A stretch of DNA of 64,000 nt from positions 3,802 through 67,801 of IMG/VR virus record IMGVR_UViG_2890625426_000001; one strand, given 5' to 3'. A program made the translations under genes and the position numbers. Positions 35,287 through 64,000 of the stretch are shown here, piece after piece (within the stretch, counting starts at the first letter, position 1; every line of letters starts with the position of its first letter). The stretch comes from a virus (lineage: Duplodnaviria > Caudoviricetes). The notes beneath the pieces are model-generated. The model saw only the letters and a list, made by a program, of their open reading frames with translations, was not told the DNA's origin and ran no database searches.

Positions 35287-37169
35287 GGCTTGTCGGCCAC
35301 CCGCGGGATCGGCATGGAGACCCACTCGCCGTTGCGCTCCGTCCGAGCTGCCGTGACGACGTTGCTGCTCACCTTGTAGGTGCCCCGGGTGACGGCCACG
35401 GTGCCCTTGGTCAGCAGCCGGACGGTGGTCCATGCGAGCCAGCCGGCACCGACCAGGAGGCCGAGCGGCCAGCACAGCACCAGGACGATGAGGAAGAGCA
35501 GGAACTTGATCATGACTTGCCCAGCTTGACAGCCAGCGCCTCGGTGAAGTCGGACCATCGCTCGCCATCGATCAGCGCTTGCTCCAGGTCCGCCATCCAC
35601 GAGAACGCGTTGTCCACATCCTTCTGCAGCTGGACGATGTCATCGGCGTCGATCTCGGCCCGCTGCATCAGCTTGTCGATCACCCGGTAAGCACAGGCGG
35701 TGCGCTCGTGCTGCTGGGCAATCTCGTGATCCTTGCGGCCCAGCTCGCGGCGCAGCTGTGAGTTGCCCACACATGCGATGACGATGGCGACGACAGACAA
35801 GGCTGCGGCGAGGAAAGCAGTCAGTAGTGCAGCGGCCATCAGTCCTCCTCCGCCAGCTCTTGGGCCCGCTCGGCGACGGCCAGCTCTTCCTGCGCGACGG
35901 TCAGGTCGATGAACGGGTGGGGTTCGTTCGTGGCATCGAGCGTCTCCTGCGTCTTGGCCACGCGGCTCGCGAAGTCCTCGCGGTAGCGCTCCAGTACCTC
36001 AGCGATCGTCTTGCTGTCGAAGGCAGCTTGCTTGTTGGCCTGGGCGACCAGTGCCGCCGCCCGCTCTTCGAGGTTGGGTACGTCGATCATGAGTCCCACC
36101 GCCCGAAGGACTCACCGTGGTGGCACTCGCCCTTGCAGGGGTGCGTGAGCATGAGCTTCATGAAGGATCCTTGCTGGTCTCTGCTGATCTCGGGCTTGCT
36201 GAAGTGGATGAAGGTGCAGTCGCTCACCGTCAGCTGCGCCAACGGATTCGTCGGACGGATGTAGAGCATCAGGTAGCCGGCGGCATCCGAGTGGACCTCG
36301 AGCCGTACGTCGTGCATCTCGGGCACGCGGTCGACGGCTGCCTCCCCCCGCCACCTCATCGCGGCACTCCGAGGATGGTCATGGTCTCGTCCTGGCTCGT
36401 CGTGCTCTGGAACTGCCCGCCCCACTTCCTCGGGGCGTTGACGTACTGGGCCAGTGCCTCGTCGGTGTACTGCACATCGACCGTGCCGACCTGCTTGCCA
36501 TCGAGCTTGGCTGGCACCTCCTCGGTGAAGCATCCGAACAGCGCCATCTGCGCGTCCTTGAACCCTCGTCGGTACTCAGCCGGGTCGGCGTAGCCGTTGC
36601 CCTGCTTGCGGTAGGTGGCCTGACGGGTGGCGCCCGCTCGGTAGCCGTACTGGTAGCTGGTGGCTTTGGTCATCGCTGGCCCACCCAACGCTTGAACCGG
36701 CTCCACAGCCGGGTGTCCTCGGTGAACGCCACGCAGTGGCAGTCCTCGCCGTGGCAGCGGTAGTCGTTGAAGGTCGGGCGCTCCGGCTTTGAGTAGAGAC
36801 TGCCTGAGGTGATCCGTACCGCATAATGCGCGGCGCGAACGTGTCCGCATCGGCACGGGTCGTTACGGACCGACCATGGAGACACAACCCATGCTGTACC
36901 GACTCGTGCCTGGTGGGAGTGCTGAGAAGGACGCGGGTGCTCATGCGGAGGTGTCTCCGCCCACGTTGGAGCCAAGGGTCTCTCACTCATCGCGGCACCT
37001 CCGCCCACTTGGTGCCGCAGTGGCCGCACCACACCGTGGTCGTGGTGTGCTCGCCGGCGCCGTTGACGACCGAGAACGACTCGATCTGGTGGCCGTTCTG
37101 GCGGCAGTCGTCCAGGTGGACCCGGTCTACCTCCTCGGGTGTGGGGCGCTCCCTAAGAGGCATCGCCAT
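35283..37169 (-). other. Run of about 7 small translationally coupled phage hypothetical genes (two with TM helices, some with CxC/CxxC)
   Basis: ORFs 35283-35513, 35510-35839, 35839-~36091, 36087-~36359, 36356-~36673, 36670-~36990 and 36987-37169, with overlapping stops and starts. Confidence 0.65.
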
Positions 37170-50171: not shown

Positions 50172-50504
50172 CTACTTGGTAGCTGCGAGGTATTCCTGGA
50201 TGAGCGAGTTGGCAATGCGTCCGCGCTCGCTGACCTTCTTGCCGTTCTCCTCAGCCCACTTGCGCACTGCGGCGTTGTCGATCTTGTCCGCCGACACCGA
50301 CGAAGCGGCCGGACGACCGGGGCGCCGACCGCCGACCCTACGGGCGTGGTTGACGAAGACCTGCACCGACTCGCGCAGCTTCCGGGCGTTCTCTTCGCTC
50401 AGATCGATCTCATGGGTCACACCGTCAACAGCAAAGACGACAGTCTCTGCCGCCTCGGAGCCGTCGACATCGTCGATAAGGTTCTCCACCACACGCCTGG
50501 CCAT
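50172..50504 (-). CDS. lsr2: Lsr2 nucleoid-associated protein
   Basis: LIDDVDGSEAAETVVFAVDGVTHEIDLSEENARKL...VRKWAEENG..VSERGRI. Confidence 0.95.
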   Translation of the reverse strand: MARRVVENLIDDVDGSEAAETVVFAVDGVTHEIDLSEENARKLRESVQVFVNHARRVGGRRPGRPAASSVSADKIDNAAVRKWAEENGKKVSERGRIANSLIQEYLAATK

Positions 50505-50565
50505 AGGAGCAGCATGCCGTATGACCTGGGTAATCACCAAGACGGCGCGCCGGATATGGCTTTCC

Positions 50566-51809
50566 TTATGCGCCGAAGATCGCCGCGTGCACTGCTTCGA
50601 TGTGCTGCTCGGGGCGAGCATTGGGAAGAGCGAGCGCTTCCTTCACGTCTTCGATGTCGTTGTGGGCGTCCTTCAAGTCCGCCCGGTTGACTCGATGGAA
50701 GGTCAGAGCCTGCGCTAGTGCCTGCTCCACAGGGTCGTCCAGGTCCAACATGACTACTCGTTTGCGCGTCATGGCGCCCCTGCTCCCTTGTCGGCCTCTT
50801 GCATCTGCTGCAGCTGGCGCTTGCGCTCGGCGATGTTCTCCAGCGCCTGACGCTGCGCCTCCTCCTTGGTGCGACATTCGTTGGTGCGGAAGTGACACCA
50901 GAGCCACTCGTCGTTGACCTTCTTGCGCTTGATCTCTTGGCCCATGTGGATGCGGCCGCCGCAGGCGGGGCAGTCGGAGTTGCCGTAGGTGGAACGGACG
51001 ACGCCCTTGGGCCGGCTGTCGTCGGTCATGCCGGTTCGACCATGAACACGAACCGTGTGCCCACGAGAAAGTACCGGCAATCTTCCCAATACACGTGGCC
51101 ACAAGCTTTATCGACGATCTGGGGCAACACTTGCTTTACCATCTCTGCACTGTGACGCTCAACGAGACGCTGCATGCACTGCCCTATGGCGGTGGTGTCT
51201 GGGTCATCTGCAATCGCTCGGAACTCAGCCTGTGTCTCGGCTACTTCCTCCAACGTGGCACTGCCCGGTCGACTGATCTTCCACTTGCCGATCTTCATCG
51301 CTGTTCCTTGCTCTTTGCGCGGCGCTGCACTCGCTCCTCCACGAACGAGCGGAACGCGTGCGGGCGGTTTTTCTTGCCGCCGACCACCGTGAACGTCGCC
51401 ACCTGCTGGCCGTCCAGGACCCGCACCTCGATCTTGTTCACCACGGCGTCGAAGCCGTCGCGCTTGCCCGGCTGGCTGGGGCCGATGTGGACCGAGTCGC
51501 CCACCCGGTAGGTCGTGTTGCCGATGCGGTACTCGGCCACCGTGTCGCTCATGCCGCATCCTTGGGTGGCAGGTACCGGCCGTAGACCGTGTGCCGGTGC
51601 CCGGTCTGCCGAAGCTCGAACTGGAAGCCTGGGGCTGCGAACGCCTCAGTGCGCCCCTTGCGCGCGTCGTTGTACACGACGCGCGCTTGCTTTTCGCTCG
51701 GGTACCGGCCGACCACGTCCCACAGCTGTGGGTGGCTCCGCATGCGGGCTGCCAGGTGAATCAGGCGGTCGTAGTCACGTGGCTCGCGGCCACTGAGTTG
51801 CTGTTCCAT
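50566..51809 (-). other. Five small coupled hypothetical genes
   Basis: 50566-50772, 50769-~51029 (CPAC), 51026-51298, 51295-51552 (SH3-like) and 51549-51809. Confidence 0.65.
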
Positions 51810-51816
51810 ATCCACT

Positions 51817-51857
51817 GGTCTAGTCGCAGCAACTACGCCCGTCTGTAGGTCATCCGA
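51817..51857 (-). promoter_or_regulatory. Bipartite promoter copy
   Basis: TCGGATGACCTA-23 nt-TAGACC-7 nt-ATG(51809). Confidence 0.75.
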
Positions 51858-51862
51858 CCCAA

Positions 51863-52696
51863 TCAGACGCCGTAGGCGCCGCTTGCGAACTGGTCGTCGG
51901 TGTCGAAGTCGGACTCATCGCTGTTGCTCTCTTGCTCCGCCGCCAGAGCAAACTCGAGAGCTGCGTCGGCGTCCTCTTCCGTCTGCTCGGCTGGCTCGAT
52001 CTGCTCGTCCTCGGAGACACGGATGGGCATCAGCAGTCCGCGGCACTCACCGAGTGTGAAGCGGACCGCTCCCATGGAACCGTTGATCTCCAGTTGCACC
52101 GGCGCGCCGGGATAGTGGCTGCCGATCTTGGCGATGTCGCGAAGGAAGTCGGCGGACAGAGCCACACGGTCTGGCTCCCCGACCGGAGCCACCGCTGCGT
52201 CTACCTGCCGCCACTGCACGAACTCACTGTCCTCGACGAGCGGGCACTGCACGAGCTCGCGATCAGGCCACTCCATGCGCATGGCTCGGCCGTTCATGCC
52301 CTCCAGGGTGGCCTGGGCACTTTCGACGTTCGCAATCGAGAGCATCAGCTCGCCCTCGATGTCGGGATCCTCTTCGCGCTTGCGCCAGGCTCGGATCTGC
52401 TTCTCGATGAACTTCATCAGGCCGAGGCCGCGACCGTTGGCGTCCTTGACGATGTAGGACTCGTCTGGCGTCTCTTCGATCTCCGGCTGCGTCGGGTCGA
52501 AGGTGTCGTAGGGGACGAAGACGTGCGCCAGCATGTAGCTGTCGGTGGACACCAGGCGGACGCCGCGTCCGTGGAACACCTCCAGGTTCACCGTGCGATG
52601 GAGAGCGGGTCGGGCCGCGTCGTCGGACGCTGCGATGGAAACTGCCTGCCAAGCCTTGGCGAAGCTGAAGGCGGGAACGTCAGTACGGAAGGTCAT
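51863..52696 (-). CDS. DNA polymerase III beta-clamp-like protein (truncated DnaN-like)
   Basis: IAASDDAARPAL, LVSTDSYMLA, FVQWRQV and GLLMPIR mirror DnaN domain II/III motifs; acidic tail. Confidence 0.75.
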   Translation of the reverse strand: MTFRTDVPAFSFAKAWQAVSIAASDDAARPALHRTVNLEVFHGRGVRLVSTDSYMLAHVFVPYDTFDPTQPEIEETPDESYIVKDANGRGLGLMKFIEKQIRAWRKREEDPDIEGELMLSIANVESAQATLEGMNGRAMRMEWPDRELVQCPLVEDSEFVQWRQVDAAVAPVGEPDRVALSADFLRDIAKIGSHYPGAPVQLEINGSMGAVRFTLGECRGLLMPIRVSEDEQIEPAEQTEEDADAALEFALAAEQESNSDESDFDTDDQFASGAYGV

Positions 52697-52745
52697 GCTG
52701 GTCTTGCCTTTGTGTTGGGGAACGACGCGAGATTAGTCGGTTTGG

Positions 52746-52988
52746 TCACAGGCCGAGGTCGTTGTTCGAGCGCTTACCGCGGCCGGCGTTGGGTGTCGGC
52801 TTGTTGCGCTGGTGCTCGTTGAAGTTGGCGTTGGCGACTGCACGCCGAAGAGCCGCGTCGCGCTTCGTGTCGTCCTTGATGCGAGCAGCGTCCTGCAACT
52901 GCTTGCCGATCAACTTTGCTACTTCGTCGATTTTTGCTTGACGGCTCATGTCGATGAACTCCTTCAGTCGGTTAGGCGGGTGATACAT
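52746..52988 (-). CDS. Hypothetical protein
   Basis: ATG 6 nt after a TAGACC promoter box. Confidence 0.6.
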   Translation of the reverse strand: MYHPPNRLKEFIDMSRQAKIDEVAKLIGKQLQDAARIKDDTKRDAALRRAVANANFNEHQRNKPTPNAGRGKRSNNDLGL

Positions 52989-52994
52989 GGACCT

Positions 52995-53035
52995 GGTCTA
53001 ATCGGCAGAAGCGCGACAGTCTGTAGGTCATTAGG
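52995..53035 (-). promoter_or_regulatory. Bipartite promoter copy
   Basis: CCTAATGACCTA-23 nt-TAGACC-6 nt-ATG(52988). Confidence 0.75.
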
Positions 53036-53040
53036 CCCAA

Positions 53041-53295
53041 CTATTCAAAGGGGTTGCGACCATCGACGTACAAGAAACTGCCGGTCTGATGGTTGTGAGC
53101 GAAGTCGCGGATAAGCCAAAGAGGCGGCGCCGCGTCGCAGAACTTCACGAGGTCGTGAAGCGCTCCCATGACATCCAGATAGCTGTAGCCGTCGAACGAC
53201 TGCACCAGCTCTTGTTCCGTGTAGAAGATCAATTCGAACGGCTGCCAGCCAGCCTTCACGAAGGCAGCGCACTCCAGGGCCTCTTCCGGACTCAT
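53041..53295 (-). CDS. Hypothetical protein after the replication initiator (possible helicase-loader-inhibitor-like)
   Basis: MSPEEALECAAFVKAGWQ; coupled to the initiator gene; function inferred from synteny only. Confidence 0.5.
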   Translation of the reverse strand: MSPEEALECAAFVKAGWQPFELIFYTEQELVQSFDGYSYLDVMGALHDLVKFCDAAPPLWLIRDFAHNHQTGSFLYVDGRNPFE

Positions 53296-53816
53296 GCGTG
53301 GACCCCCTTCTCGCAGCCGCATGCAACAGCATTTCCGTCGTCGTCTAGCCGCCAGCCGCCTGCGCACTGATCGCAACCTTCTCGGGGAGGCTGAAAGCGC
53401 GCGGGCGACGGTTCTGAAGCCGTAGTTGTCCGGGATGCCTTGCCAGAGTTGTACGGATTTGGTCGAGAGTTGTCCGGACGGGTCCGTACTGACCCTTCTA
53501 CAGACCCTTCCTTTACTGACCCAGAGGGTTGTCCGGGATTTCCGTACAACCCCACGAGCACGCGGTACTGGTTGTATTGACCTGGACCTCGGCTGGTCGG
53601 ACGCTTGACTTCAAGCTCACCAAGCGCCTCTAGGCGTCGGATCGCTTCCACGACGGTGTCCTTGTTGCAGTTAGCCTTCAGGGCGAGTCGACGCATGCTG
53701 GGGAAGGCGTTACCGCCATCATCGTTCGCCTCGTCAGCGATTGCGAGCAGTATGAGCCGGTCGTTACCGGTGCTCTTTGAGTTGTGAAACACGCCGATCA
53801 TGCAGCCGATGCTCAT
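53292..53816 (-). CDS. Replication initiator-like HTH protein
   Basis: RLILLAIADEANDDG..AFPSMRRLA...TVVEAIRRLEALG..NQYRV; C-terminal CxxC..GW..CxC. Confidence 0.8.
   Translation of the reverse strand: MSIGCMIGVFHNSKSTGNDRLILLAIADEANDDGGNAFPSMRRLALKANCNKDTVVEAIRRLEALGELEVKRPTSRGPGQYNQYRVLVGLYGNPGQPSGSVKEGSVEGSVRTRPDNSRPNPYNSGKASRTTTASEPSPARFQPPREGCDQCAGGWRLDDDGNAVACGCEKGVHA
53425..53550. repeat. Iteron-like repeats GTTGT(C/A)CGG inside the initiator gene
   Basis: Direct copies at 53425, 53448, 53469 and 53528; inverted copy at 53542-53550. Confidence 0.7.
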
Positions 53817-53940
53817 GACGCGGTTCCTTCAGCAAAAGACCCCGGAAGGTTTTGCAATAGGGCGTTGTCCATGTAAGGATGCTCCTAAACAGTTAGATGT
53901 GATGATCCACTGTTTAGCCGCTGCAGTCCGGCGGATCAAG

Positions 53941-53973
53941 CAGAAGCCCCGTGACTCCCGTCCGGGGCTTCTG
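53941..53973. terminator. Hairpin (terminator or regulatory)
   Basis: CAGAAGCCCCG-11 nt-CGGGGCTTCTG, a perfect 11-bp stem in an intergenic gap. Confidence 0.6.
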
Positions 53974-54350
53974 TCACGTTCGGGGTAAGCAGGGGACAGC
54001 AAGGGCCAGCAGTGGATAATCCACGTTGTGCAATTCTCCGTCTCCGCTTCCCAAGCGTTCCGCGGCGGGTTACAACAGGGCCATGGACCTCCTCGGCGGA
54101 CCCCAACCGTGCGCGCTGACCCACGCCAACGAAAAGCAATGCCCACGCGCTGCTGTGGTGTCGGTCGTCGATTCCGAGGGCGTCTCGGCGTGGGGCTGTG
54201 AGGCTCATTCCCTACGTGCCCTGAACGCCACGGACGGCTCACGAATCGGTGGTGTTCGTGACTGGGCCGCGTGCCGGCGCCTGCTCAACGGCGAGTGGAA
54301 CCAGCGCGTCCCGAATTCGTATAGCTTTGCGCCGGAGCTGCAGCTCTAGG

Positions 54351-54390
54351 CCGAATGACCCATAGCGGAATAGTTCGAAGTAACTAGGCT
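54351..54390 (+). promoter_or_regulatory. Bipartite promoter copy
   Basis: CCGAATGACCCA-22 nt-TAGGCT upstream of the gene at 54417. Confidence 0.65.
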
Positions 54391-54416
54391 CCGGAGCGAG
54401 CCCTCAGGAGAGACCG

Positions 54417-54776
54417 ATGAACCTTGACCCCCGCAAGTCAGCCCTCGCCGCACGCATCAGCGAGCGCCTCGCCGAGCACCGTCGTGTCGGGCCCATCGTC
54501 GCGGAGGCGCGACGACTGGACATCGACGTACAGCGAGCCTCGTGGAACGAGGAGCCGGTCCCTGGTGAGCTGGAGCAGGTCACCCAGAACCGTGACGACT
54601 ACCTGGTCTTTCACCGCACGGACCTTGAGCAGTTCCGCGACATGCGGGACATCTACGAGCAGATCGACGCTGTGACCCCAGCAAGCATGCCAACGACAAC
54701 GGTGGCGGCGAAGCATGTCGTCGATCGCGAACCACACCGCCTGGATCACCGCTTTGGTGGCGGCATGCAGCTGTAG
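54417..54776 (+). CDS. Hypothetical protein, counter-oriented
   Basis: AGGAGA RBS; bipartite promoter upstream; followed by a GC hairpin and U-tract at about 54788-54824. Confidence 0.75.
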   Translation: MNLDPRKSALAARISERLAEHRRVGPIVAEARRLDIDVQRASWNEEPVPGELEQVTQNRDDYLVFHRTDLEQFRDMRDIYEQIDAVTPASMPTTTVAAKHVVDREPHRLDHRFGGGMQL

Positions 54777-54839
54777 TCAGCACAGCAAGAGCGCGGGCCA
54801 CCCCAGGGCCGCCCGCGCTCTTTTCATGTCTACAGACCC

Positions 54840-55301
54840 TTACAGCTCGAACAGTTCCAGCTGCTCCTGCTCTGCTTCCCTGGCGAGCCCAACCGCCAGT
54901 ACCTCGGTGGCTGCGTCGTGCAGCTCGATCGCGATCCGGCTACCGGCCTCCCAGTACGCCTGGTTCTCTGGGTCCTCGTAGTAACTGTGGGCGTCCCCGC
55001 CGGCCGCCACGGCGACCCAGGGGTTGGGTGGGCCGCCACGAGTAGCGTGGTCGACGTAGGCGGTCCAAGCGGCGTTGTAGCGCTCGAGGCCTTGCGTCGC
55101 GATGCCGTAGTGAATCACCTCTTGCACCTCGCGCCAGGTGATCGCGGCGCCGTTACCGAAGCGGATGCCCGCTTTCTCGGCCACGTACCAGGTGGAGCCT
55201 CCCTGGCAGGCTCGTTTCACGGCCTCGCCGAAGTCACCACGGAAGAATCGATGGACCTCGCCACTGAGCGCGGAGTGCAGCGCGCCCGCGGTCGGCTTCA
55301 T
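54840..55301 (-). CDS. Hypothetical protein
   Basis: MKPTAGALHS... coupled to the HNH gene. Confidence 0.6.
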   Translation of the reverse strand: MKPTAGALHSALSGEVHRFFRGDFGEAVKRACQGGSTWYVAEKAGIRFGNGAAITWREVQEVIHYGIATQGLERYNAAWTAYVDHATRGGPPNPWVAVAAGGDAHSYYEDPENQAYWEAGSRIAIELHDAATEVLAVGLAREAEQEQLELFEL

Positions 55302-55732
55302 AGGTCGCCCCGCTTGGCCGGCGACAGGTAGCCCAGGGCACGAGCCTCGGCCACGTTGTCGTGTATCCAGGAGTGGTGCACTCGGCACAGGTCCATGAGG
55401 TTGTCGGGGGAGTGGTCGTGACCCTGGCTCTGGCGGTTGATGTGATGCGCGTCGGAAGCGGGAGAACCGCAACGCCCAAGAGCACGTACGCCAAGGCCAT
55501 GCGGCAAGCCTGGATCTACTTCTACAAAGTGGATGAACTCACACCGTCCGCCGCTGCGCTTGCGGATGATCCCCTTGGAGGCCTCGAACCATGCGCGATC
55601 ATCCTGCTTGCGCTGGCTCTGCTCGCTCAGTGACTTGCGCCGTAGGGCTGTGCGCTTCAGCTGGCTCGCACCCTGCTTGAGGCCTGTCTTGGCCTTGAGC
55701 GCCGTCCGCCGTCTCAGGGGCGTCTTCTTCAC
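55298..55732 (-). CDS. HNH endonuclease
   Basis: KKTPLRRRTALK N-terminus; RSGGRCE...HHINRQSQG...NLMDLCRVHHSWIH. Confidence 0.8.
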   Translation of the reverse strand: MKKTPLRRRTALKAKTGLKQGASQLKRTALRRKSLSEQSQRKQDDRAWFEASKGIIRKRSGGRCEFIHFVEVDPGLPHGLGVRALGRCGSPASDAHHINRQSQGHDHSPDNLMDLCRVHHSWIHDNVAEARALGYLSPAKRGDL

Positions 55733-55876
55733 GGCCAGACCTTGTCGACGGGCTGCGGATCGTCGTTGACCCACAGCCAGGTGAGGGCCAGGACTGCCAG
55801 GGCGAAGGCGTAGCCCAGCCCAAGGGCCAAGACCCGGAGGTTGAGACTCCGGGTCTTGGCGGTGGGTAATGAGGGG

Positions 55877-56227
55877 TCACTCAGGCGGGGCATCGTGTAC
55901 TTCCTTGGGCAGTGGGTAGTTCAACAGATCACGACCCGCACGATGCAGAGCCACGATCCACTTCCGCTCTGCGGCATAGGCGTCCTTGCGGGTGCCCCAG
56001 AAGCGCTCAAGCTCCTTGATCGTCGGTCGACGGCCCGTAGCCAGTTGTTGCTTGACCCAGGCCGACCGCGCCGAACGCTTGCCTAGATCGCCGCGACAGT
56101 GCTCTTCGAGCCTGATTCCTAACGGGGCTGCCGTCTGTCCGACATACCGTTCCTCGCCAGAGTCTGGATCGCAGAGGGCATAGATCGTGTACTGCTGTGC
56201 GGCCGTGCTCGATCGCTGTCCGGTCAA
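55877..56227 (-). CDS. GIY-YIG nuclease
   Basis: IYALCDP...RYVGQT...RLEEH...AERKWI...LLN. Confidence 0.8.
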   Translation of the reverse strand: MTGQRSSTAAQQYTIYALCDPDSGEERYVGQTAAPLGIRLEEHCRGDLGKRSARSAWVKQQLATGRRPTIKELERFWGTRKDAYAAERKWIVALHRAGRDLLNYPLPKEVHDAPPE

Positions 56228-57294
56228 AATGGCTCCTCTCCCGGTCCTGGTGCCCAGGACTGCTTGCCAGCCTCGCTGCGCTCGTTGCCCTCCGCGCCGA
56301 CACCGCTTCGCTCCTCGGCTTGGCTGAAGGGGTAATCAACCACAACCTCGGCGTCAATGGGCTCGTCGTCACTACTGCGGTACGAAAGGACTAGGGCACG
56401 GACCGCTGACTCCTTGCGCGTGGGTACTGCAGTGGTCATGAAGTCGAATGTCCCCCGCCAGGCGGCCTTCAGCTCTTGCAGTTGATCATGCGCAAGGGTG
56501 TCGCAGATCCAGGGGAACAGGTTCACCGTGTCAGGAGCCGCGCCGGCCCCGATGGCGACCTGAGCTTGCGGCGGGGGAGGCGGTAGGGCGGTGGTGATGT
56601 CTCCACCGGCATCGAGCGCGGTCATCTGGCGCAGCGTCGAGCGCAGCTCCAGGACCGGCACAGGAAACTTCCGTGTCTCGCCGCCCTTGACCGACTGGCG
56701 TTGCTCTAGGCGCAGCGTGGCCGGGATGATCTGGCCCTGCGCGCGAGCAGCCGCAAGTACCTCCGCCGTACCGCCCAGCTCTTGGGCAGCGTTCCAGCCG
56801 TTGGAGCTGATCATCCACACGCCGAGGTCGGGCAGGTCCGGCAGCATCACGTTCAGCCGGGTCACTGGCTTGCAGGCGTTGCCCTTGCTGGCTAGTGCGT
56901 TGCGCTGCTCCTGGTCGAAGGGGCACTTGCAGGGGGTCTGGGTCAGCTGCTCGGTCTCGCCGTCGCAGCGGCGCTGGCAGCCACCCTTGGACCACATCTC
57001 CATCCACTGGCTGACCACGTTGTCGCCGGGCGGGACCATGACAGGCACCTCGGTGACACTGGTGACGACCTCGTGTGTGCTGTCGTTATTCAGCAGCACG
57101 ACGGCCTTGGCTTGACCGCCGAAGAGGTCAGCGACGGCCTGCGCGATGACGGCCGACTTGGTGGTGAAGCGGAAGGCCTCCAGCTTTGACGGACGCATGA
57201 TCTTCTTGCCGTTCTTGGTCACGCCTTCGACCTGCATGCCGATGCGGATCTCACCGATCTGACGACCACGACGTTGCAAGGTGTTGATCGGCAT
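56224..57294 (-). CDS. phiC31 gp3-like (recombination directionality factor family) protein
   Basis: GEIRIG, RPSKLEAFRFT, GCQRRCDG, CKPVTRLNVML, LGVW..SNGWNAA. Confidence 0.75.
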   Translation of the reverse strand: MPINTLQRRGRQIGEIRIGMQVEGVTKNGKKIMRPSKLEAFRFTTKSAVIAQAVADLFGGQAKAVVLLNNDSTHEVVTSVTEVPVMVPPGDNVVSQWMEMWSKGGCQRRCDGETEQLTQTPCKCPFDQEQRNALASKGNACKPVTRLNVMLPDLPDLGVWMISSNGWNAAQELGGTAEVLAAARAQGQIIPATLRLEQRQSVKGGETRKFPVPVLELRSTLRQMTALDAGGDITTALPPPPPQAQVAIGAGAAPDTVNLFPWICDTLAHDQLQELKAAWRGTFDFMTTAVPTRKESAVRALVLSYRSSDDEPIDAEVVVDYPFSQAEERSGVGAEGNERSEAGKQSWAPGPGEEPF

Positions 57295-58424
57295 CAGGCC
57301 ACCTCCGCCGCTTCGGTGAAGGACAGGCCATAGGCGGCCAGAGTCTCTTCGCACGGCACGATGGTCTTGTCGGCGATGCCCTTGAGCGCGAGCGCCTCGT
57401 CCCGCGTCAGGGCAGCGAGGTCGCTGATCGAGCGAAGGCCAGCCTTGACCAGCGCCGAGCGGGCACGGCCGAGGGCGTCGAGGTCCTCGATCAGGGGAAG
57501 GGGCTGGGAGCCGTCCGGCAGCGGTGGGTACCAGACCGTGCCGCCGAGCTTGGAGCCTGCTTCCTGCTGGTCACGGTAGGTCCGGTAAGCGTTGAGGAAG
57601 CGCTGGTACTCCGCGTCACCCGTCGGGACGACGAAGAGCTTGTACCCGCGGGCGTAGCTCTTGCGCAGGTGCACGACGGCGCAGAAGTCGACAGCAGGCA
57701 TGGCCTCCTTGTTGCCCAGGTGGTCCACCCACACCTCAGTGCAGCGGCGGTAGGCCTCCAGCTGTGCGCGCATGGTGCTGTACAGGTGCTTGCCGCACTT
57801 GAGGTCGAACAGGCCACGGGCGCCGCGTGTGGCCTTCCCGGGCAGCTGGACGTGAGGCAGGGTGCCGACGAGGTCCAGAGTGCCGGCGTAGCCTTCGGCC
57901 GGGTTGGCCACGGTGGCCTCTGCCAGCTCGGGATCAAGGTCGAAGTCGGTGTGGAAGTTGAGCAGCCCGTCGCTGATCTCATCGAGGTCGATCACTTCGC
58001 CGTCGACCTCGGCGTCGACCAGGTGGTGAGGGATGCTTGGGATCGGCAGGTCCAACAGCAAGGCCTCCAGCACATCGTGCTGGTAGGTGCCCATCTCGGA
58101 CGCCAGGTCACGGAGCCGCTTGGCCTCCGCCTTGACGAAGTCCACGAGGTCATCGCGGGTAGCGCCCTCGGCTTTCAGGGTGCCCAGGTAGTCGTGCTGG
58201 TCGATGGCGAACTCAGCCGTCAGGCGGGCGATCCACTCGCGAAGCTGTGCCTTCTCCTCGGTGGCGCCGAGCACCTTGGTAACCGAGTCCAGGACGACCT
58301 CGGGGTCTGCGGGATCGACGTAGACCCGGTTGTCGCCGTTGTCGAAACGGCCTATCACTCCATGTGCAGTTTTCAACTTGCTATCTTTCTTGGTGGTGAC
58401 GTTCAGCGCCCGGTCTTGCCGCAA
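57294..58424 (-). CDS. PD-(D/E)XK exonuclease with C-terminal HhH/alpha-CTD-like domain
   Basis: SVTKVL, GTYQH, YAGTLDL, FDLK, QLEAY; ALVKAGLRSISDL...LKGIADK; start uncertain. Confidence 0.82.
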   Translation of the reverse strand: MRQDRALNVTTKKDSKLKTAHGVIGRFDNGDNRVYVDPADPEVVLDSVTKVLGATEEKAQLREWIARLTAEFAIDQHDYLGTLKAEGATRDDLVDFVKAEAKRLRDLASEMGTYQHDVLEALLLDLPIPSIPHHLVDAEVDGEVIDLDEISDGLLNFHTDFDLDPELAEATVANPAEGYAGTLDLVGTLPHVQLPGKATRGARGLFDLKCGKHLYSTMRAQLEAYRRCTEVWVDHLGNKEAMPAVDFCAVVHLRKSYARGYKLFVVPTGDAEYQRFLNAYRTYRDQQEAGSKLGGTVWYPPLPDGSQPLPLIEDLDALGRARSALVKAGLRSISDLAALTRDEALALKGIADKTIVPCEETLAAYGLSFTEAAEVA

Positions 58425-58443
58425 GCAGGGCCGGGCGTTCTTG

Positions 58444-58689
58444 CTATTCGGGCTTACGGCCCTTGCCGGTAAGCAGCCAGACAGGCGAGACGCCGAGGAT
58501 TTCGGCGAGCGGCACGACGTTGTGGGCTTTCATGCCCCTACCCTCGCTCCACCCCTTCACCTGTTGGCCGGAAGTGTTGAGGCGCACGCCGATGTAGTTC
58601 CACGTCAGCTTCTTGGCTTCCGCCGCTGTTGCAATACGTGCGCCGATTTCTGCAGCTATTTCGTTGGGTACTGCCAGGGTGTTTCCCAT
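58444..58689 (-). CDS. XRE-family HTH regulator (Cro/CI-like)
   Basis: IGARI...LAEILGVSPVWLLTG; first gene of the leftward arm. Confidence 0.85.
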   Translation of the reverse strand: MGNTLAVPNEIAAEIGARIATAAEAKKLTWNYIGVRLNTSGQQVKGWSEGRGMKAHNVVPLAEILGVSPVWLLTGKGRKPE

Positions 58690-58845
58690 GCCTCTATTTC
58701 TAGTCCGCCCGTGCGACACATGCAAGGATTTTCTTTATGGTTTTTCTTCATGTTTTCCCTTGACGTTTCCTGTCGGGCGACTAATGTAAGAGACGTAAAG
58801 GAAACAGCGAGGGCCGCTACTCGTTCCCCCGGAGTAGCGGCCCTC
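58690..58845. promoter_or_regulatory. AT-rich divergent promoter region with a 5' leader hairpin
   Basis: Rightward TTGACG(58760)-16 nt-TAATGT(58782); leftward TTGCAT-17 nt-TAGAAA ahead of the XRE ATG; perfect 14-bp stem 58809-58845. Confidence 0.7.
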
Positions 58846-58874
58846 TAGCCAAAAGCAACTGTAAGGAGTTACTC

Positions 58875-59808
58875 ATGGCTTCATCATCATCTTACGTTCA
58901 ACCGCTCACCAAAGAGCAGGACGATTTTCTCCGCCAGGTGTGGCAGGACGCCCAGCCGTCACGGTGGAAGACCGGCGACGACTTCCCGACGTTCGTCGCC
59001 GACCTTATGGAGGGGTACGACAACCCCGGCATCACCCAGGACCAGCTGGACGAGTTCGTCACCGAGCTGGCCGAGGGGCTGCGCTGCAGTGGCTGCGCCA
59101 CCGACGAAGGCGTCAGCGAGGGCGGCGAGTGTGGCGAGTGCTCGCTGGATGGGGAAGGCTGATGTCCGAGCGGCTGCAGCTGTTCGTCATCGCCCACCCG
59201 GCTACCGAGGTGCGCGAGGTCAACGGAGACACCGAGCGCATCGACTCGATGATGTACCTGTCCAAGGCGGGTCAGAGCATCGAGCGGGGCAGCGCTGCCC
59301 CGCTCGGCCGGGGCTGGGTCGACGGCCTGGACTCGAGCGTCGAAGTCTTCGCGGGCACTTCCGCCCAGGCAGTCGCCGAGGGGTGCCGCTACCTCCTCAG
59401 CCTTTACGGCGGCGGGCGCCTCTTGGACTATCGACAGGCCCAAGCGCTAGACCAGAGGGAGAAGGCAGAACGACAGGCACTCGCTGACGAGTGGCTGCGC
59501 CTCGATGAGACGACCGACCAGTACAACCGCCGCACACGCGGCGAAGGATTCGAACTATGAAGGCAGCCCCCAACCCGGACGATCCCTCAAGACTGGACTT
59601 CCAGCACGAGGACGAGCGCTACTCCCTCTTCGCGCCTACCCAGCTGCGCCCCTGGTGGGTCGCGCAGAAGGGCGATGACAAGCGACCGCACTACGTTGAA
59701 TGGTCGCCCGGGGTCAACGAGCATCAGGCGATGCGCATGATCTTCCCCACACACGTACAACGAGCGTTCAGAGAGGCGCTCCAGCAGGACCAAGGATTGA
59801 CCTTCTAG
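58875..59808 (+). other. Three coupled hypothetical genes (58875-59162 with CxxC..CxxC; 59162-59560; 59557-59808)
   Basis: AAGGAG RBS; TGATG/ATGA overlaps. Confidence 0.7.
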
Positions 59809-61013
59809 TGACCCTTTACATCGGTAACGCAATCGACGACAGCGACTCGATCTTCAAGCTGGCCGTGCGCGACTGGTTCGCCCGTGAGTACAAGGTCACG
59901 TCAGACGACATCTACTCGATCCGGCTGGACGGTGAGTCCTGGAGCGAGATCACGATCGAACTCCGCAATGTCTTCTACTACGTGGCCCTGCGCGACGGGC
60001 GTACCTTCAACGGTGACAAGGAGTTCGGCGAGTTCCTGCGCCTGGTTGCTACGCCCGTGGCCTACCCCGAACCCCCACCAGCACGCCCCGAGCCCGCGGC
60101 CGTCGACAGTCGCGAGCGCATCGAGCAGCTGCACAAGCAGCTTGTCGAAGGGGTGACATCGTTCAGGACGGGCGAGGACTGGGCCAACTACATCCAGGCC
60201 GCCACGCGGATGTGGCGCTACAGCTCGCGGAACCAGGAGCTGCTGTTCGTGCAGCGGCCCGACGCCTCGTTGGTGTTCGGCTATCAGGCCTGGCGCAAGC
60301 ACGGCCGACAGGTACGCAAGGGCGAGAAGGGGATCGCCATCTGGGCGCCGATGACCTACCGGCTTAAGCCCGAGGAGGTCGCCAATACCGAAGACGCCGG
60401 CGCGAAGCAGCTGCGCGGCTTCAAGCTGGTCACCGTCTTCGACGTGAAGCAGACCGACAGTCTCGACGGGCGGCCGATCGCCGACCCCCGGCCGAAGCTG
60501 CTCACCGGCAACGCCCCCGCCGCCCTGCTCAAGGGTCTGACCAAGTACGCGCACGACATGGGCTACCCGGTCACCTACGAGGACATCGGCTGGCCCAGTA
60601 TCAACGGCTTCGCCAGCCCCGAGCCCAAGCGCATCGTCATCCAGGCACAGCGCGAGGCCATGCAGCAACTCAAGACACTGGTGCACGAGATCGCGCATGT
60701 GTCTCTTGGGCACATGGACCGGGTGCAGGAGTACCGGCGTCACCGCGGGCGCATGGAGGTAGAAGCCGAGTCCGTGGCCGCCATCGTGCTCGGCACCTGC
60801 GGCATCAACACCGACCAGTACTCGTGGCCCTACATCTCCTCATGGTCGAAGGGTGACCCGAAGGTCGTGCAGGAGACCGCCGCGGTGGTCATCGAACAGG
60901 CACACAAGTTGCTGTTAGCAGTGCCCGAGCTGGCAGCCGAGATCCGGACCGAACGCAACCAGCGCGACCACGGGCAAGTCGTCGCACGTGACCTGTCTAC
61001 GCCAGGACTTTGA
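59808..61013 (+). CDS. ardC: ArdC-like ssDNA-binding antirestriction protein with HExxH metallopeptidase-like domain
   Basis: YSSRNQELL, GYQAWRKHGRQVRKGEKGIAIWAP, VFDVKQT, LVHEIAH, EVEAESVA, YISSW; GTG start 59808. Confidence 0.85.
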   Translation: MTLYIGNAIDDSDSIFKLAVRDWFAREYKVTSDDIYSIRLDGESWSEITIELRNVFYYVALRDGRTFNGDKEFGEFLRLVATPVAYPEPPPARPEPAAVDSRERIEQLHKQLVEGVTSFRTGEDWANYIQAATRMWRYSSRNQELLFVQRPDASLVFGYQAWRKHGRQVRKGEKGIAIWAPMTYRLKPEEVANTEDAGAKQLRGFKLVTVFDVKQTDSLDGRPIADPRPKLLTGNAPAALLKGLTKYAHDMGYPVTYEDIGWPSINGFASPEPKRIVIQAQREAMQQLKTLVHEIAHVSLGHMDRVQEYRRHRGRMEVEAESVAAIVLGTCGINTDQYSWPYISSWSKGDPKVVQETAAVVIEQAHKLLLAVPELAAEIRTERNQRDHGQVVARDLSTPGL

Positions 61014-63007
61014 AAGGACCAGCAGTGAAGAACTTCTCAGAAGCCAACCAACGCGCCCTGCACTACGAGGACGCGTACAAGCTGCAGCGCGCCATCGACC
61101 TCCGGAAGACGCCGGATGACGAGTCCCCGGACCTGTCACAGGACGCTTTCGAGCGCCTGGAAACACACCTGATGGAGAACATCATGTTCCTGGGCCGCAG
61201 CTCGTACTGGCTGAAATACTACCGCGACATGGAAAAGCACCCGCTTGAGCGCGACGAACACCTCACCGCGTGAAATAGGCCGAATGACCTATGGATGGTG
61301 TCCTGATATGCGCCTAGTTTAAATGGCATGGAAGCCGCCGAAGAAACCCGATACATACCCACCATCGAGGCGTTCGCCTCTGAAATAATTCGCCTCGCAA
61401 ACGCCCTGCACGCTGCGCAGAAGCACCCCGACTACGACTACTCGATGACGTTCGAGGGCAACACCGCCCACACGTCTCGGGAGGGCTGGGAGCTGAACAA
61501 TGCCATCGGCAATGGCGGGCGCGTAACGAACGTGCACTCGAACTATCCAACCGCTCTCTACTGGCGGCGTCTGAAGGCGGAGCAGTGACCGACCTGTTTA
61601 GCACCCAGGAGGTGGCCATCATCCTCCACTGCACCAAAGCAGCCGCGCAGAAGCGGCTGCGGCGGGCAGGCCTGGAGCCGGCCAAGCAGGTGGGCCGCTA
61701 CAACCTCTGGACCCTGGCCCAGATCAACCAACTACGACAAGCACACAAGGAGCAGCAGTGAGCAAAGACCGCAAGATCATCCGCCCCGACCCAATACCGC
61801 ACCACCCATCTCAATATCGAACGACTCCTGCCCAAGTGGCCGAAGCACTCGCCAAGGCCGAGCGGCGCCGCGCGCAGGTCAAGAAGGGCATCGGCCCGGT
61901 ACAGCTGACCGACGCCAAGAGCAAGAGCCTGCGGGCCGCCCGGGAGCGCCGCTTCCGCGACGCAGGCGGGATGGGCTTGGCATGACAAACGACGAAGCAT
62001 TCGATCGATGGCTGCTCATTGACACCGACCCCCGGGTCAAGTCAACCTCTTTGTTCGACTCGCTGGACGCAGCACAGCAGGATGTAGAGAACATCTTTCT
62101 GCCGCCGTACGTCACCAAGGATCAGCAATGGCACCCCGCCATTCTCCGCGCCTCGTACACGATCGACACCGGAGAATGGAGTTTCATAGCGGAACCGCTG
62201 AAGCCTGTACCCGAGTACTGGGTTGAGTTACCCCTCACTCCGTCCGCAAACGCCGTCTATCCGTTGACGGCCGAAACAGTTCTCCGCAAGGACGAACCCG
62301 TTGTGGGCGCCATGTTCGTACGCGAGCCAAATGGGACGCTACGCATCCTCTCGGGCGACGAACGCGCAGAGGCGCTCAGGACATGGGATGCGATGTCATG
62401 AGCGGCCCTTCATCACCAGACCAGGCCCTCATCGACGCGACCGAGATCGTCTACGCACACCGCCGTGCCGGCGAGCTCGCAGCCGAGAAGGGCCGCGGCG
62501 TCACCACCATGAGCGTTCTTGATGACCTGGTCGCGTACTACAGCAAGGTCAAGGCGGATGCCGAGTCCGTGCGCGTGATCGAAGGCGCACGCAGCCTGGA
62601 GAAGCACGCGCGTGAGCTGCGCAGCCGCCCAGGACGCCGTGCAGTCGACCGCGGCATAGGGCGCGAGCTGTGACGCCTGCGGACGTGCTTGAGTAGGAAG
62701 CCCTCTACAAGATGCTTCGGTGGCTACCTGTGACCAGCTCTTCGCCGACTTCCGCCGCCTGGTGGCTGAGGACGCCCAAGCCTGGGAGGACCTTCTGCTC
62801 GCTGGCCGCGAGCACGGCAGGCAAAGCCTGCAGCACGAGGACGCCGACCAAGATCACATGGCAGCCCACGATGCCATGATCGCTTTCGCGGTTGTGCACG
62901 GTGAAGACCTGACGGCACACCTCGGAGCGGTCACCGAAGCGATCAAGGAGCGCCGCGCCGTGGAGGGCGACGACGATCGAGCGCCCTCCTATGGGTGGGG
63001 TGCTTGA
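61010..63007 (+). other. Run of small hypothetical genes including a MerR/Xis-like HTH protein (61585-61761)
   Basis: ORFs 61010-61273, 61328-61588, 61585-61761 (FSTQEVAIILH...VGRYNLWT), 61758-61985, 61982-62401, 62398-62673 and 62720-63007. Confidence 0.65.
61280..61320 (+). promoter_or_regulatory. Bipartite promoter copy
   Basis: CCGAATGACCTA-23 nt-TAGTTT-7 nt-ATG(61328). Confidence 0.75.
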
Positions 63008-63046
63008 GCCCTATCGCTGCGCAGGGTCGGTGTTGATACTGACCCT

Positions 63047-64000
63047 GTGGATGAGGCGACCCGGCTAGCGCTCGAGGCGCAACGCTTCTTGATCGTGTCT
63101 GCTGAAGAGAGGCGCGGGACGCTCCGCGATCACTTGTCCCCTGCGGAGCTGGAAGCTTCCTACGCCGACACCGAGAGCATGCGCATGCAGCTTGAGCAGC
63201 AGCTCAGAGAGCATGGACTCCGCCGCTCAGCGCCCCTGCGCGTCCCCGAGGGAGAGCCCTGGTACGAGCCCGACGATGGCCGCGGTCAAGCACCTCAGAC
63301 GGTGGATGCGCCGTCGCCGGCGCCCGATCGGGGCTCTCCTGGGATGGAAGTCGATGCCCCCTGGTTCGGGGACGCGGCCGATGAGCTTGATGGCTCGCGT
63401 CACGCCAGGGACGATCAGCGTCAAGGACCTCAGGATCCCGAGCATCGCCACGACGAAGGGCCGGACCAAGCCATGGCTGGTAAGACCGAGCGCGTCGACT
63501 CCACTCGCGCCGCCTACGAGCGCGCCCGCTACAGCGCCTACGAGGCCAAGCAGAGCGACGACCCCGACAGGATGCGCGCAGCTTGGGGGGAGCTGGCTCA
63601 GGCCGACCAGGCTTACCGGCAGGCCTGCATCGACCGCGTGGGCCCCGAAGACGCCGAAACCTTCCGGTCCATGGACCTCCAGCGCAGCCAGCAGGAGAGC
63701 AAGCGAGAGGTGGAGCGCCTCTACGGCAAGCTGCACGAGAACGATCAAGAGCTGTACGCCGAGGACGTGGAGCGCCTCGGCCACGCCCAGGACGAGCTGG
63801 CGATCAAGCAAGCCCCGCAGATGGATCTGGACGACCCCTATGTCTTCCGCATGACCCACTACGACGACGCCCCCAAGCCCGAGCCGACTCGCGCCGAGCG
63901 CTTGCGGGCGGCGATGGCGCGAGGCAAGGAGCGGCAAGCGCAGGAGCGGACGCATGAGCGGACCCAGGAGCGGGAGCGCGACATGGGCTACGACAGGTAG
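63047..64000 (+). CDS. Charged coiled-coil protein with plasmid Mob-like C-terminal tail
   Basis: 317-aa ORF ending ERTQERERDMGYDR. Confidence 0.7.
   Translation: MDEATRLALEAQRFLIVSAEERRGTLRDHLSPAELEASYADTESMRMQLEQQLREHGLRRSAPLRVPEGEPWYEPDDGRGQAPQTVDAPSPAPDRGSPGMEVDAPWFGDAADELDGSRHARDDQRQGPQDPEHRHDEGPDQAMAGKTERVDSTRAAYERARYSAYEAKQSDDPDRMRAAWGELAQADQAYRQACIDRVGPEDAETFRSMDLQRSQQESKREVERLYGKLHENDQELYAEDVERLGHAQDELAIKQAPQMDLDDPYVFRMTHYDDAPKPEPTRAERLRAAMARGKERQAQERTHERTQERERDMGYDR

Follow-up and report, generated by a model that had tools for sequence, protein, structure and literature searches.

A 75.5-kb prophage in a tRNA-Ser(TGA) gene that carries an ArdC-like gene, a MOBF relaxase and a coupling protein within a single pair of attachment sites

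The window analysed here is a stretch of 64,000 nucleotides of IMG/VR virus record IMGVR_UViG_2890625426_000001 and corresponds to bases 30758-94757 of contig C111, which is 95,153 bp long. An initial annotation had singled out window positions 52746-64000 as a plasmid-like arm, that is, a conjugative leading region joined to a phage genome. We conclude that this flagged stretch is the attR-proximal end of a 75.5-kb prophage integrated in a tRNA-Ser(TGA) gene. For the element as a whole, the balance of the evidence tips, in our judgement, towards a composite of a prophage and an integrative mobilisable element (IME) with one integrase, in which the 12-gene operon containing an ArdC-like gene, located in the flagged stretch, and a mobilisation module at the other end belong to one unit bounded by attachment (att) sites. 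In our reading, the composite arose when a phage took up a complete module for integration, excision and mobilisation, or when the module took up the phage, and it would now be one excision unit.

Boundaries of the element and the module next to attL

The host genome (4.86 Mb, 75.4% GC, 99.9% marker completeness) is assembled in 698 contigs. Along C111, the GC content is 0.76-0.77 over the first ~19 kb and ~0.65 from ~20 kb to the end. A complete tRNA-Ser(TGA) gene was found at contig 19473-19566, and an exact 62-bp direct repeat, which constitutes the 3' part of this gene, is present at contig 19505-19566 (attL) and again at contig 94926-94987 (attR; window 64169-64230, 169 bp beyond the window end). 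The distance from attL to attR is 75,483 bp, and the DNA past attR is high in GC and host-like. From the 62-bp repeat and the GC shift we therefore conclude that the element is integrated, and that attR and host DNA lie to the right of the flagged stretch. No third copy of the 62-bp core was detected in the contig or in the genome. The contig contains a single tyrosine integrase, and the phage part is therefore without other means of integration or excision; a PF07508 serine recombinase was not found in the whole genome.

These boundaries bear on what had been proposed for the flagged stretch. It was supposed to be joined to a plasmid, and the sequence to its right was to be searched for conjugation genes. 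To the right there are only 169 bp, attR and the chromosome, whereas a relaxase and a coupling protein do occur in the same unit, at its attL end. The suggestion of a phage-plasmid is not supported either, as the element is integrated in tRNA-Ser between host flanks, and no replication or partition genes of extrachromosomal type (ParA, Rep) turned up when open reading frames (ORFs) of the element were scanned against Pfam (29 + 49 ORFs) and PHROGs (29 + 74 ORFs). Phage-plasmids such as P1 and N15, as presented in the cited part of PMC12282955, likewise combine phage and plasmid-type functions in one element, but the element described here is integrated and no plasmid replication or partition genes were found in it. 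The same part of that source cites Huang et al. 2023 (ISME J), whose topic is the conjugative transfer of streptococcal prophages.

Between the att sites, a complete contractile-tail gene set was identified with PHROGs (terminase, portal, protease, scaffold, major head, sheath, tube, tape measure, baseplate, fibres and holin). The earlier description of a complete myovirus genome, with full head, tail-sheath and baseplate sets, is thus confirmed, and with genes from terminase to baseplate, lysis genes, an integrase and att sites the element is a temperate contractile-tail prophage. The genes next to attL, which lie outside the window and are on the minus strand like the late operon, are as follows.

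Contig 19505-19566: attL, 62-bp core
Contig 19691-20779, minus strand: tyrosine integrase
Contig 20789-20995, minus strand: excisionase-family helix-turn-helix (HTH) protein
Between the excisionase-like gene and the coupling protein gene, minus strand: p107, a 107-aa protein
Between the excisionase-like gene and the coupling protein gene, minus strand: RDD membrane protein
Contig 21958-23877, minus strand: VirD4/TraG-type coupling protein, 639 aa (Pfam)
Contig 24014-26956, minus strand: MOBF relaxase-helicase, 980 aa (Pfam, NCBIfam)
Contig 94926-94987: attR, 62-bp core

The relaxase (P0001) matches TrwC PF08751 (7e-30, 105 bits against a cut-off of 25) and AAA_30 (5.2e-35, 121 bits; an SF1B helicase), and scores 100.5 bits with the NCBIfam model NF041492 MobF, the cut-off of which is 100. 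Its YY pair (residues 17-18) and its DPHLHVH motif align with YY and DPDLHTH of the solved pCU1 TraI (3l6t), and it also matches the R388 TrwC structure (1omh) with an E value of 1.4e-6. We take the YY and His-triad residues to be the catalytic residues of the relaxase. The coupling protein matches TraG-D_C (1.4e-13, 51.3 bits), T4SS-DNA_transf (7.9e-12, 45.2 bits) and TrwB_AAD_bind (1.3e-5, 24.7 bits), all above the cut-offs, and the NCBIfam VirD4-like CD1115 family (1.2e-17) under its cut-off; DLGKTS and LLYALDE could be recognised in it by eye. Both genes are single-copy in the genome, full-length and free of internal stops. The module resembles R388 TrwC/TrwB in its relaxase domain, which is of the TrwC type and has the Tyr and His-triad motifs, in the SF1B helicase, and in having a gene for a VirD4/TrwB-type ATPase next to the relaxase gene; it differs in that the relaxase is only ~23% identical to plasmid MobF relaxases, that it is integrated and linked to a phage, and that no TrwA-like gene was identified. 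Thus, the claim that conjugation genes reside on the same replicon as the phage was correct, since a MOBF relaxase and a VirD4/TraG-type coupling protein lie inside the att-bounded unit.

The distribution of the two proteins among plasmids and phages was very uneven. The N-terminal 440 residues of the relaxase found 920 of 72,556 plasmid records, 872 of them typed as conjugative, and the same query is therefore able to find remote relaxases; with it, the relaxase domain was detected in none of 50,697 phage records. The whole relaxase matched nine of these phage records, and in each of them the match was confined to the helicase part, from residue 439 on. The coupling protein gave no match in the same phage records, and neither the TrwC part of the relaxase nor the whole coupling protein matched a PHROG family at 1e-5.

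The module is located downstream of a hairpin that follows the holin gene, and the 223-bp spacer between the relaxase and holin genes is a candidate origin of transfer, as judged by its sequence. A 15-nt motif, AAGC[G/T]CTGAGCGTCT, is found upstream of the relaxase gene (contig 27032-27046, minus strand) and upstream of the relaxase gene of a metagenome contig, L012 (3494-3508), with 14 of 15 positions identical (E 0.014); the motif may be a nic site or another part of an origin of transfer. Eight nucleotides from it lies the second copy of a 19-nt direct repeat, GCTT.TGACCAGCGGTT.T, the copies of which (17/19 identical) are at contig 19572-19590, 5 nt from the attL core, and at contig 27055-27073, in the spacer (L002 1572-1590 and 9055-9073), so that they exactly bracket the module from integrase to relaxase. 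Elsewhere in the contig the 19-nt pattern is absent; its exact 12-nt core has one further copy in the genome, on contig C277. The match has an E value of 0.14 in its own search; the repeat could represent binding sites of the excisionase-like protein, the trace of a nested element, or chance.

The position of the module does not agree with the flagged stretch being a conjugative leading region, since the conjugation genes are at the opposite end of the element, next to attL, and not in or beside that stretch. In R388, the relaxase operon enters the recipient last. If the origin is upstream of the relaxase gene here and the same polarity holds, the flagged stretch would be a region that enters late rather than a leading region.

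The joint between module and phage could, in principle, be an assembly artefact, the contig having joined phage and mobilisable-element DNA of different molecules. The assembly is indeed fragmented, and the next of the 698 contigs has less than half the length of C111. Yet host DNA flanks both ends, one junction has the complete tRNA-Ser, the other its 3' part of 62 bp, and strand and composition are uniform over the module-phage junction; we regard an artefact as extremely unlikely.

ArdC-like gene and C-terminal tails of the flagged stretch

The right part of the flagged stretch, from 58875 to 64000, is a rightward operon of 12 tightly packed plus-strand genes, only two of which (the ArdC-like gene and one with a weak HTH signal) gave a family signal.

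58875..59162, plus strand: gene 1, 95 aa, acidic, Cys-rich end, no family match
59162..59560, plus strand: gene 2, 132 aa, tail RRTRGEGFEL
59557..59808, plus strand: gene 3, 83 aa, tail QQDQGLTF
59808..61013, plus strand: gene 4, ArdC-like, 401 aa, ArdcN and HExxH domain
61025-61273, plus strand: gene 5
61328-61588, plus strand: gene 6
61585-61761, plus strand: gene 7, weak HTH_17/sigma70_r4 signal
61758-61985, plus strand: gene 8, tail RDAGGMGLA, overlapping the next ATG
61982-62401, plus strand: gene 9, no family match
62383-62673, plus strand: gene 10, tail VDRGIGREL, no family match
62720-63007, plus strand: gene 11, tail DRAPSYGWGA, no family match
63047..64000, plus strand: gene 12, ORF317, 317 aa, last gene before attR, no homologues

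ORF317 is complete, with a TAG stop on the last three bases of the window. The ArdC-like gene, which the initial annotation had placed here, is clearly present. It matches ArdcN PF08401 (7.2e-10, 39.6 bits against a cut-off of 22.6), Peptidase_M78 (29.6 bits against a cut-off of 22; the translation contains an HEIAH motif) and phrog_7245, 'anti-restriction protein' (4.9e-17); its match to the solved R388 ArdC (6sna/6i89) is weak, with an E value of 0.004. The start codon is the GTG at 59808, in a frame that is open from 59700. The ~100 N-terminal residues (59808-60110) are not covered by any plasmid or phage homologue, all matches starting at residues 100-119. Like the ArdC of R388 (IncW; cited part of PMC7213743, structures 6sna and 6i89), the protein combines the ssDNA-binding ArdcN domain with an HExxH metalloprotease domain, HExxH being named in that source as the active-site motif of ArdC. 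The differences are the remoteness of the similarity, the N-terminal extension of ~100 residues, and the location in a phage early operon and not in a plasmid leading region.

ArdC had also been called a hallmark of conjugative plasmids. This is true as far as frequency goes: tblastn with the protein found 2149 of 72,556 plasmid records versus 11 of 50,697 phage records, and the best relatives (36-39% identity) are on actinobacterial plasmids. Homologues are, however, also present in phages, including the ~135-kb Gordonia phages RedWattleHog and Stormageddon. In the rest of the flagged stretch, DNA similarity to plasmids is limited to a 141-bp match inside the ArdC-like gene, and a megablast comparison with phages revealed no relative. 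The ArdC of R388 binds ssDNA, and it is in the recipient, not in the donor, that its expression is needed (cited part of PMC7213743). By analogy, the ArdC-like protein may relieve restriction on incoming DNA; the need for ArdC in the recipient does not point to delivery of proteins into recipients, which had been suggested for the element.

The suggestion of protein delivery was linked to a common charged C-terminal tail said to be present on many unrelated proteins of the flagged stretch. The nine C-termini quoted for it are all true ORF ends and had been correctly placed. To compare them with other C-termini, 99 element genes were curated by third-position GC and by hand, and 2955 host ORFs were used as a control. 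The proposed consensus, [RD]-x-G-x-[GE]-L within the last 10 residues, was found in 0 of the 24 genes ending in the flagged stretch, in 0 of 75 other element genes, and in 1 of the host ORFs. A loose form, [RD].{0,4}G.{0,3}L.{0,1}$, was present in 7/24 versus 5/75 genes (Fisher 0.0075), in 76/2955 host ORFs (2.6%), and in 2.6% of internal windows, and a terminal Leu in 8/24 versus 9/75 genes and in 149/2955 host ORFs (5%); both the loose motif and the terminal Leu were chosen post hoc on the same tails, and the p-values are inflated accordingly. An unsupervised BLOSUM62 test of all pairs of C-terminus-anchored 6-8-mers from the 99 element genes gave no excess of high-scoring pairs over random 99-gene host sets (P 0.12-0.76, from the counts of such pairs), an excess being seen only against the internal-window null. 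Over the last 20 residues, Arg content (mean R 2.17 versus 2.22) and net charge were as in host C-termini, and on a Janibacter plasmid, the loose motif was found in 0 of 21 tails of an ArdC neighbourhood. Since the patterns were fitted to the same tails and the unsupervised test was null, a common tail is not established. Enrichment, which had been proposed as a check, thus failed for the literal motif and in the unsupervised test, and was obtained only with the post hoc forms.

In four tails (those ending at 59560, 59808 and 61985, and that of the HNH nuclease gene 55298-55774), the Gly, Glu and Arg codons are the Shine-Dalgarno sequence of an overlapping downstream start. In gene 2, the codons GAA GGA double as the Shine-Dalgarno sequence of gene 3, whose ATG overlaps, and in gene 3, CAAGGA is located 11 nt ahead of the GTG start of the ArdC-like gene. 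Ribosome-binding-site coding was rejected as a general cause of the tails, the loose motif being present in 5/56 translationally coupled versus 7/43 uncoupled genes, and Gly in the last five residues in 22/56 versus 24/43. A DNA-level repeat behind the tails was also considered and rejected, as no shared DNA motif was seen. A residual excess, not explained by translational coupling, consists of the terminal Leu (8/24 versus 5% in the host) and of Gly at position -4 (7/24 versus 12% in the host). We conclude that the tail attributed to many unrelated proteins mostly reflects after-the-fact selection together with a few tails coded by ribosome-binding sites.

One tail is different. The last 36 residues of ORF317, TRAERLRAAMARGKERQAQERTHERTQERERDMGYDR, are homologous to the C-terminal tail of the relaxase of the element. 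When the last 50 residues of every element protein were compared with all element proteins, the relaxase/ORF317 pair was the best match, with 17 of 36 residues identical in an alignment that reaches within one residue of both C-termini. The common tail spans 30-36 residues, and nothing else in the two proteins aligns (pairwise E 1e-4). The two are reciprocal best matches among 3054 element and host proteins, with E values of 5.6e-4 unadjusted and 0.002-0.004 composition-adjusted, the next match being at 0.02-0.06. The relaxase ends in ...RERSREIGYDL, and the tail contains RPRVRERSR. By an eye count, ~31% of the nucleotides differ between the two tails, while the peptide is kept. Of 45,278 genome frames, only 3, all in the element, carry a terminal [IMLVF]-G-[YF]-[DE]-x or the pattern R-x-R-x-x-G-[YF]-[DE]-x: those of the relaxase, ORF317 and gene 2 (59162-59560); both patterns are post hoc, and the tail of gene 2 is partly coded by a ribosome-binding site. 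The L012 relaxase ends in ...ERAEQEVGMSR, a loosely similar acidic-hydrophobic-Gly ending. Protein-atlas look-alikes of ORF317 all scored below 0.9 and were not used. On sequence grounds, the homology between the relaxase and ORF317 tails is solid, and this is the one robust tail case.

Thus, of the claim that charged tails mark the relaxase and co-transferred proteins, the part that survives is the homology between the relaxase tail and that of ORF317. Substrates of VirB/D4 have documented Arg-rich signals at the C-terminus, and some systems are documented to recruit the relaxases MobA and TrwC through their C-termini (cited part of PMC10025392). In view of these signals and of the Arg-rich RPRVRERSR, the tail could serve to dock the relaxase and ORF317 on the coupling protein, and we propose it as a candidate signal of this kind. 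It resembles the Agrobacterium VirB/D4 and the MobA/TrwC signals treated there in RPRVRERSR, in the alternate Arg residues and in the location at the extreme C-terminus, with a homologous tail on ORF317; it differs in that there is no common consensus, and the tails of the flagged stretch are not more basic than those of the host.

The view of the flagged stretch as the leading region of a conjugative element, with a charged tail that is common to many of its proteins and marks them for type IV secretion, could draw on the loose-motif and terminal-Leu counts, on the relaxase and coupling protein in the same unit, on the resemblance of the relaxase and ORF317 tails, and on the documented C-terminal signals and MobA/TrwC recruitment (PMC10025392, part cited above). 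Against it, the literal motif is absent from all 24 genes, the unsupervised test is null, and Arg content and charge are as in the host; four tails owe their G, E and R residues to the ribosome-binding site of the next gene; no pore genes were found and the stretch is not on the leading side of the candidate origin; and R388 ArdC acts when expressed in the recipient (PMC7213743, part cited above). We consider this view very improbable.

Proposed composite element and its alternatives

The single-unit reading is favoured by the 62-bp cores that flank all 75 kb, the absence of an internal core, the single integrase, and the unbroken strand and composition. Composition of the module correlates with that of phage parts with r = 0.83-0.90, compared to 0.84-0.92 for phage parts among themselves; tetranucleotide composition is a weak measure that fails to separate module, phage and L012, and cannot decide between capture and accretion.

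Relatives of the module are rare. Only two close relatives of the relaxase were found among 5.8 billion protein clusters and in a metagenome scan, and the only retrievable relative of the module is L012, a 9973-bp metagenome contig. It preserves the order of the genes for relaxase (46% identity over ~920 residues), coupling protein (33%), p107 (29%) and the excisionase-like protein (54%), with no phage genes nearby; its flanks contain an IS481 transposase, an unrelated integrase, a CHAT protein and host-like genes. For the phage part, tblastn with TerL gave remote phage matches only (<=58% query cover, all under 35% identity).

Several observations weigh against the composite. L012, the sole relative of the module, lies outside any phage, and its relaxase is split by an in-frame TAG (5227-5229) into pieces of 572 and 376 aa. 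TerL was found at E<=1e-30 in 0 of 300 other genomes of the order (a floor, from a stricter first look) and the relaxase in 0 of 29 genomes of the family; no relatives of the phage or of the composite were found in IMG/VR or species-representative scans, and conserved linkage of phage and module therefore cannot be shown. The bracketing by the 19-nt repeat could be a sign that the module is nested as an element of its own. The coupling protein is without an obvious hydrophobic N-terminal membrane segment, and its Walker A motif is atypical by eye. As to the tail, the closest relaxase homologue, P0002, ends in ...SFGPSW and is without it; the common tail is rich in Arg and Glu, and part of its score may be compositional; and a HMMER search of 1.84 billion representatives with ORF317 returned only ORF317 itself. 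Finally, a VirB4-type ATPase of the mating pore (PF03135, PF12846) had no match in the 698 contigs of the genome.

Mating-pore families were also absent from the element ORFs scanned with Pfam and PHROGs, and the FtsK-family matches in the genome are long multi-domain genes elsewhere. Since no mating-pore ATPase was found, we conclude that the element is mobilisable at most, and not self-transmissible. Integrase plus relaxase, att repeats, no pore genes found, and an origin of transfer that is a candidate only are the make-up of an IME. IMEs with their own relaxase (iMOB) are a known class, according to the cited part of PMC11389934. The element resembles them in its integrase, excisionase, relaxase, own coupling protein, presumed origin and lack of mating-pore genes, and L012 looks like a plain iMOB; the difference is that here the att sites and the integrase are common with a complete phage genome of ~68 kb.

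A second possibility is that there are two tandem elements, a 7.5-kb IME and a prophage which has lost its integrase and the internal att site, the IME lying beside the prophage or nested at its edge, without joint function. The module does exist without a phage in L012, the 19-nt direct repeat brackets exactly the integrase-to-relaxase module (though with an E value of 0.14), and tandem or nested arrangements are known: a screen for predicted ICEs (integrative and conjugative elements) or IMEs adjacent to or overlapping prophages reports 612 curated cases of phage-ICE tandems and nested ICE::Phage or Phage::ICE (Huang et al., Sci Adv 2026, cited part of PMC13651849). But there is no third 62-bp core, and the repeats flank the whole 75 kb; as the contig has a single integrase, integration or excision of the phage part alone would not have been possible; and composition, a weak measure, shows no break at the junction (r = 0.83-0.90). 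We consider two tandem elements improbable. A phage-ICE tandem formed by accretion would have an internal att copy and a second recombination module, neither of which was found on the contig.

The element could also be an ordinary prophage with inert cargo, in which the relaxase and coupling protein genes are passengers or have been recruited by the phage, spread is by virions only, ArdC serves infection, and the tail is a relic or a coincidence. Such cargo would be expected where the module is found, after the holin hairpin, at the usual place of accessory genes of temperate phages, and ArdC homologues occur in 11 phage records that include the ~135-kb Gordonia phages. While the internal stop in the L012 relaxase means that decay occurs in the lineage, the relaxase and coupling protein are full-length and uninterrupted here, the catalytic motifs of the relaxase are intact, and 46% identity has been retained with the L012 relaxase over ~920 residues. 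No mating-pore genes were found in the genome, but mobilisable elements by definition lack a pore of their own (PMC11389934, part cited above). The nucleotide divergence of ~31% between the relaxase and ORF317 tails, with the peptide kept, suggests selection at the protein level. We regard inert cargo as unlikely, though it is an alternative to be reckoned with.

If the composite is indeed one unit, integrase and excisionase would cut out a circle of 75 kb that has ORF317 and the ArdC operon on one side of attP and the genes for integrase, excisionase, coupling protein and relaxase on the other. The circle would be replicated from the early operon, packaged, and would leave as a virion. With a helper type IV secretion system (T4SS), the relaxase would nick the spacer upstream of its gene and pilot ssDNA through the helper pore via the coupling protein of the element; ArdC, made early after entry, would relieve restriction of the incoming DNA. 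The excisionase-like protein may bind both 19-nt copies, thereby coupling excision to relaxase expression. The full scheme, a temperate myovirus with its own relaxase, coupling protein and origin that spreads as a virion or, with a helper T4SS, as ssDNA, with ArdC guarding entry and ORF317 recruited via a relaxase-type docking tail, is possible but rather doubtful.

Associations of phages with ICEs and IMEs themselves are already known. In the phage-ICE structures of the cited part of PMC13651849, a prophage and a conjugation-derived element are also joined at a tRNA-type att site and may co-mobilise; here, there are only a relaxase and a coupling protein, one integrase and one att pair, and no internal att site. 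That survey, in the part cited, calls its cases tandems 'rather than a hybrid element'. The single integrase, the single att pair and the relaxase and coupling protein without further conjugation genes make the element a new variant, and the relaxase-like tail on a phage protein is its most original detail. In our literature searches we noticed no prophage with its own relaxase and coupling protein; the supplementary case list of PMC13651849 may contain similar cases. If the unit moves both ways, the phage host range would no longer limit where the prophage goes. The tail on a phage protein, if truly a recruitment signal, would come from a system of Gram-positive type, for which recruitment signals are ill-defined. 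Even without dual movement, the element would be a clear case of the capture of a module at the accessory-gene site of a phage.

Other early genes and the late operon

The left part of the flagged stretch belongs to a leftward early operon for replication and recombination, which is separated from the rightward operon by a divergent intergenic region. The features of this part, from left to right, are listed below.

50172..58424, minus strand: leftward early replication/recombination operon (Pfam and PHROGs)
50172-50621, minus strand: Lsr2
51863-52696, minus strand: clamp-like protein (phrog_947 3.5e-7, partial)
52746-52988, minus strand: 80-aa ORF, tail RSNNDLGL
53292-53816, minus strand: HTH_36 replication-initiator-like protein
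54417..54776, plus strand: 119-aa ORF, tail HRFGGGMQL, no family match
54840-55301, minus strand: 153-aa ORF, tail EQEQLELFEL
55298-55774, minus strand: HNH nuclease
55877-56227, minus strand: GIY-YIG nuclease
56224-57354, minus strand: Gp3-like 'recombination directionality factor-like' protein (PF18897 9.4e-49)
57294-58424, minus strand: Cas4-type exonuclease
58444..58725, minus strand: Cro/CI-type HTH regulator, first gene of the leftward operon (HTH_19 4e-4, under the Pfam cut-off)
58726..58874: divergent intergenic region between both early operons, with promoters and operators inferred from the gene layout

The regulator at 58444-58725 also matches phrog_4 (2.6e-6) and phrog_2328 (9.6e-6), both annotated as 'transcriptional repressor'. 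A scan for the sigma-70 consensus detected no promoter in 58726-58874. The ORFs 54417-54776 and 54026-54349 form a small plus-strand islet convergent on 54840-55301, and a 17-nt inverted repeat (I23) is located at 54787-54822, between the 54417-54776 and 54840-55301 ORFs.

A promoter motif common to the flagged stretch and the phage had been reported. We found only one 48-nt direct-repeat pair, while scans for sigma-70 promoters and terminators remained at chance level. The copies of this pair, at 51815-51862 and 52993-53040, are 73% identical and occupy two intergenic spacers of the leftward operon; the 13-nt core, GTCTGTAGGTCAT, has two exact copies in the window. This repeat may be the promoter motif that was meant.

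The Gp3-like protein (PF18897) is found in an element whose sole recombinase is a tyrosine integrase. As the genome contains no PF07508 serine recombinase, the Gp3-like protein presumably has another role here. The end of the 153-aa protein, EQEQLELFEL, resembles QLxLF, which we take to be a sliding-clamp-binding motif, and the clamp-like gene is 2 kb away.

The late operon extends over the left part of the window and past its left end.

Contig 19505-30757: left continuation beyond the window, with tail fibre, holin, mobilisation module, integrase and attL
Window 1..35568, minus strand, continuing past the left end: late (structural) operon (PHROGs)
5457-6584, minus strand: baseplate wedge (PHROGs)
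9465-11159, minus strand: tape measure (PHROGs)
11895-12302, minus strand: tube (PHROGs)
12317-13759, minus strand: sheath (PHROGs 4.5e-41)
15935-16855, minus strand: major head (PHROGs 5.7e-65)
17312-18781, minus strand: protease (PHROGs 9.7e-95)
30966-33083, minus strand: portal (PHROGs 9.5e-71)
33721-35568, minus strand: TerL (PHROGs 1.1e-54)

A tail-associated protein of 1895 aa is encoded by window 1-5037 and contig 30107-30757; the only family that it matches in PHROGs is a 'major tail protein' of 2079 residues, of which a part is aligned. The prophage also encodes a membrane family-2 glycosyltransferase (window 47312-48760, minus strand) and a family-6 glycoside hydrolase (49013-50086, plus strand), which may serve in surface-polysaccharide conversion. 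The list of ORFs gives 967 aa for 47312-50215, an over-extended frame of the glycosyltransferase.

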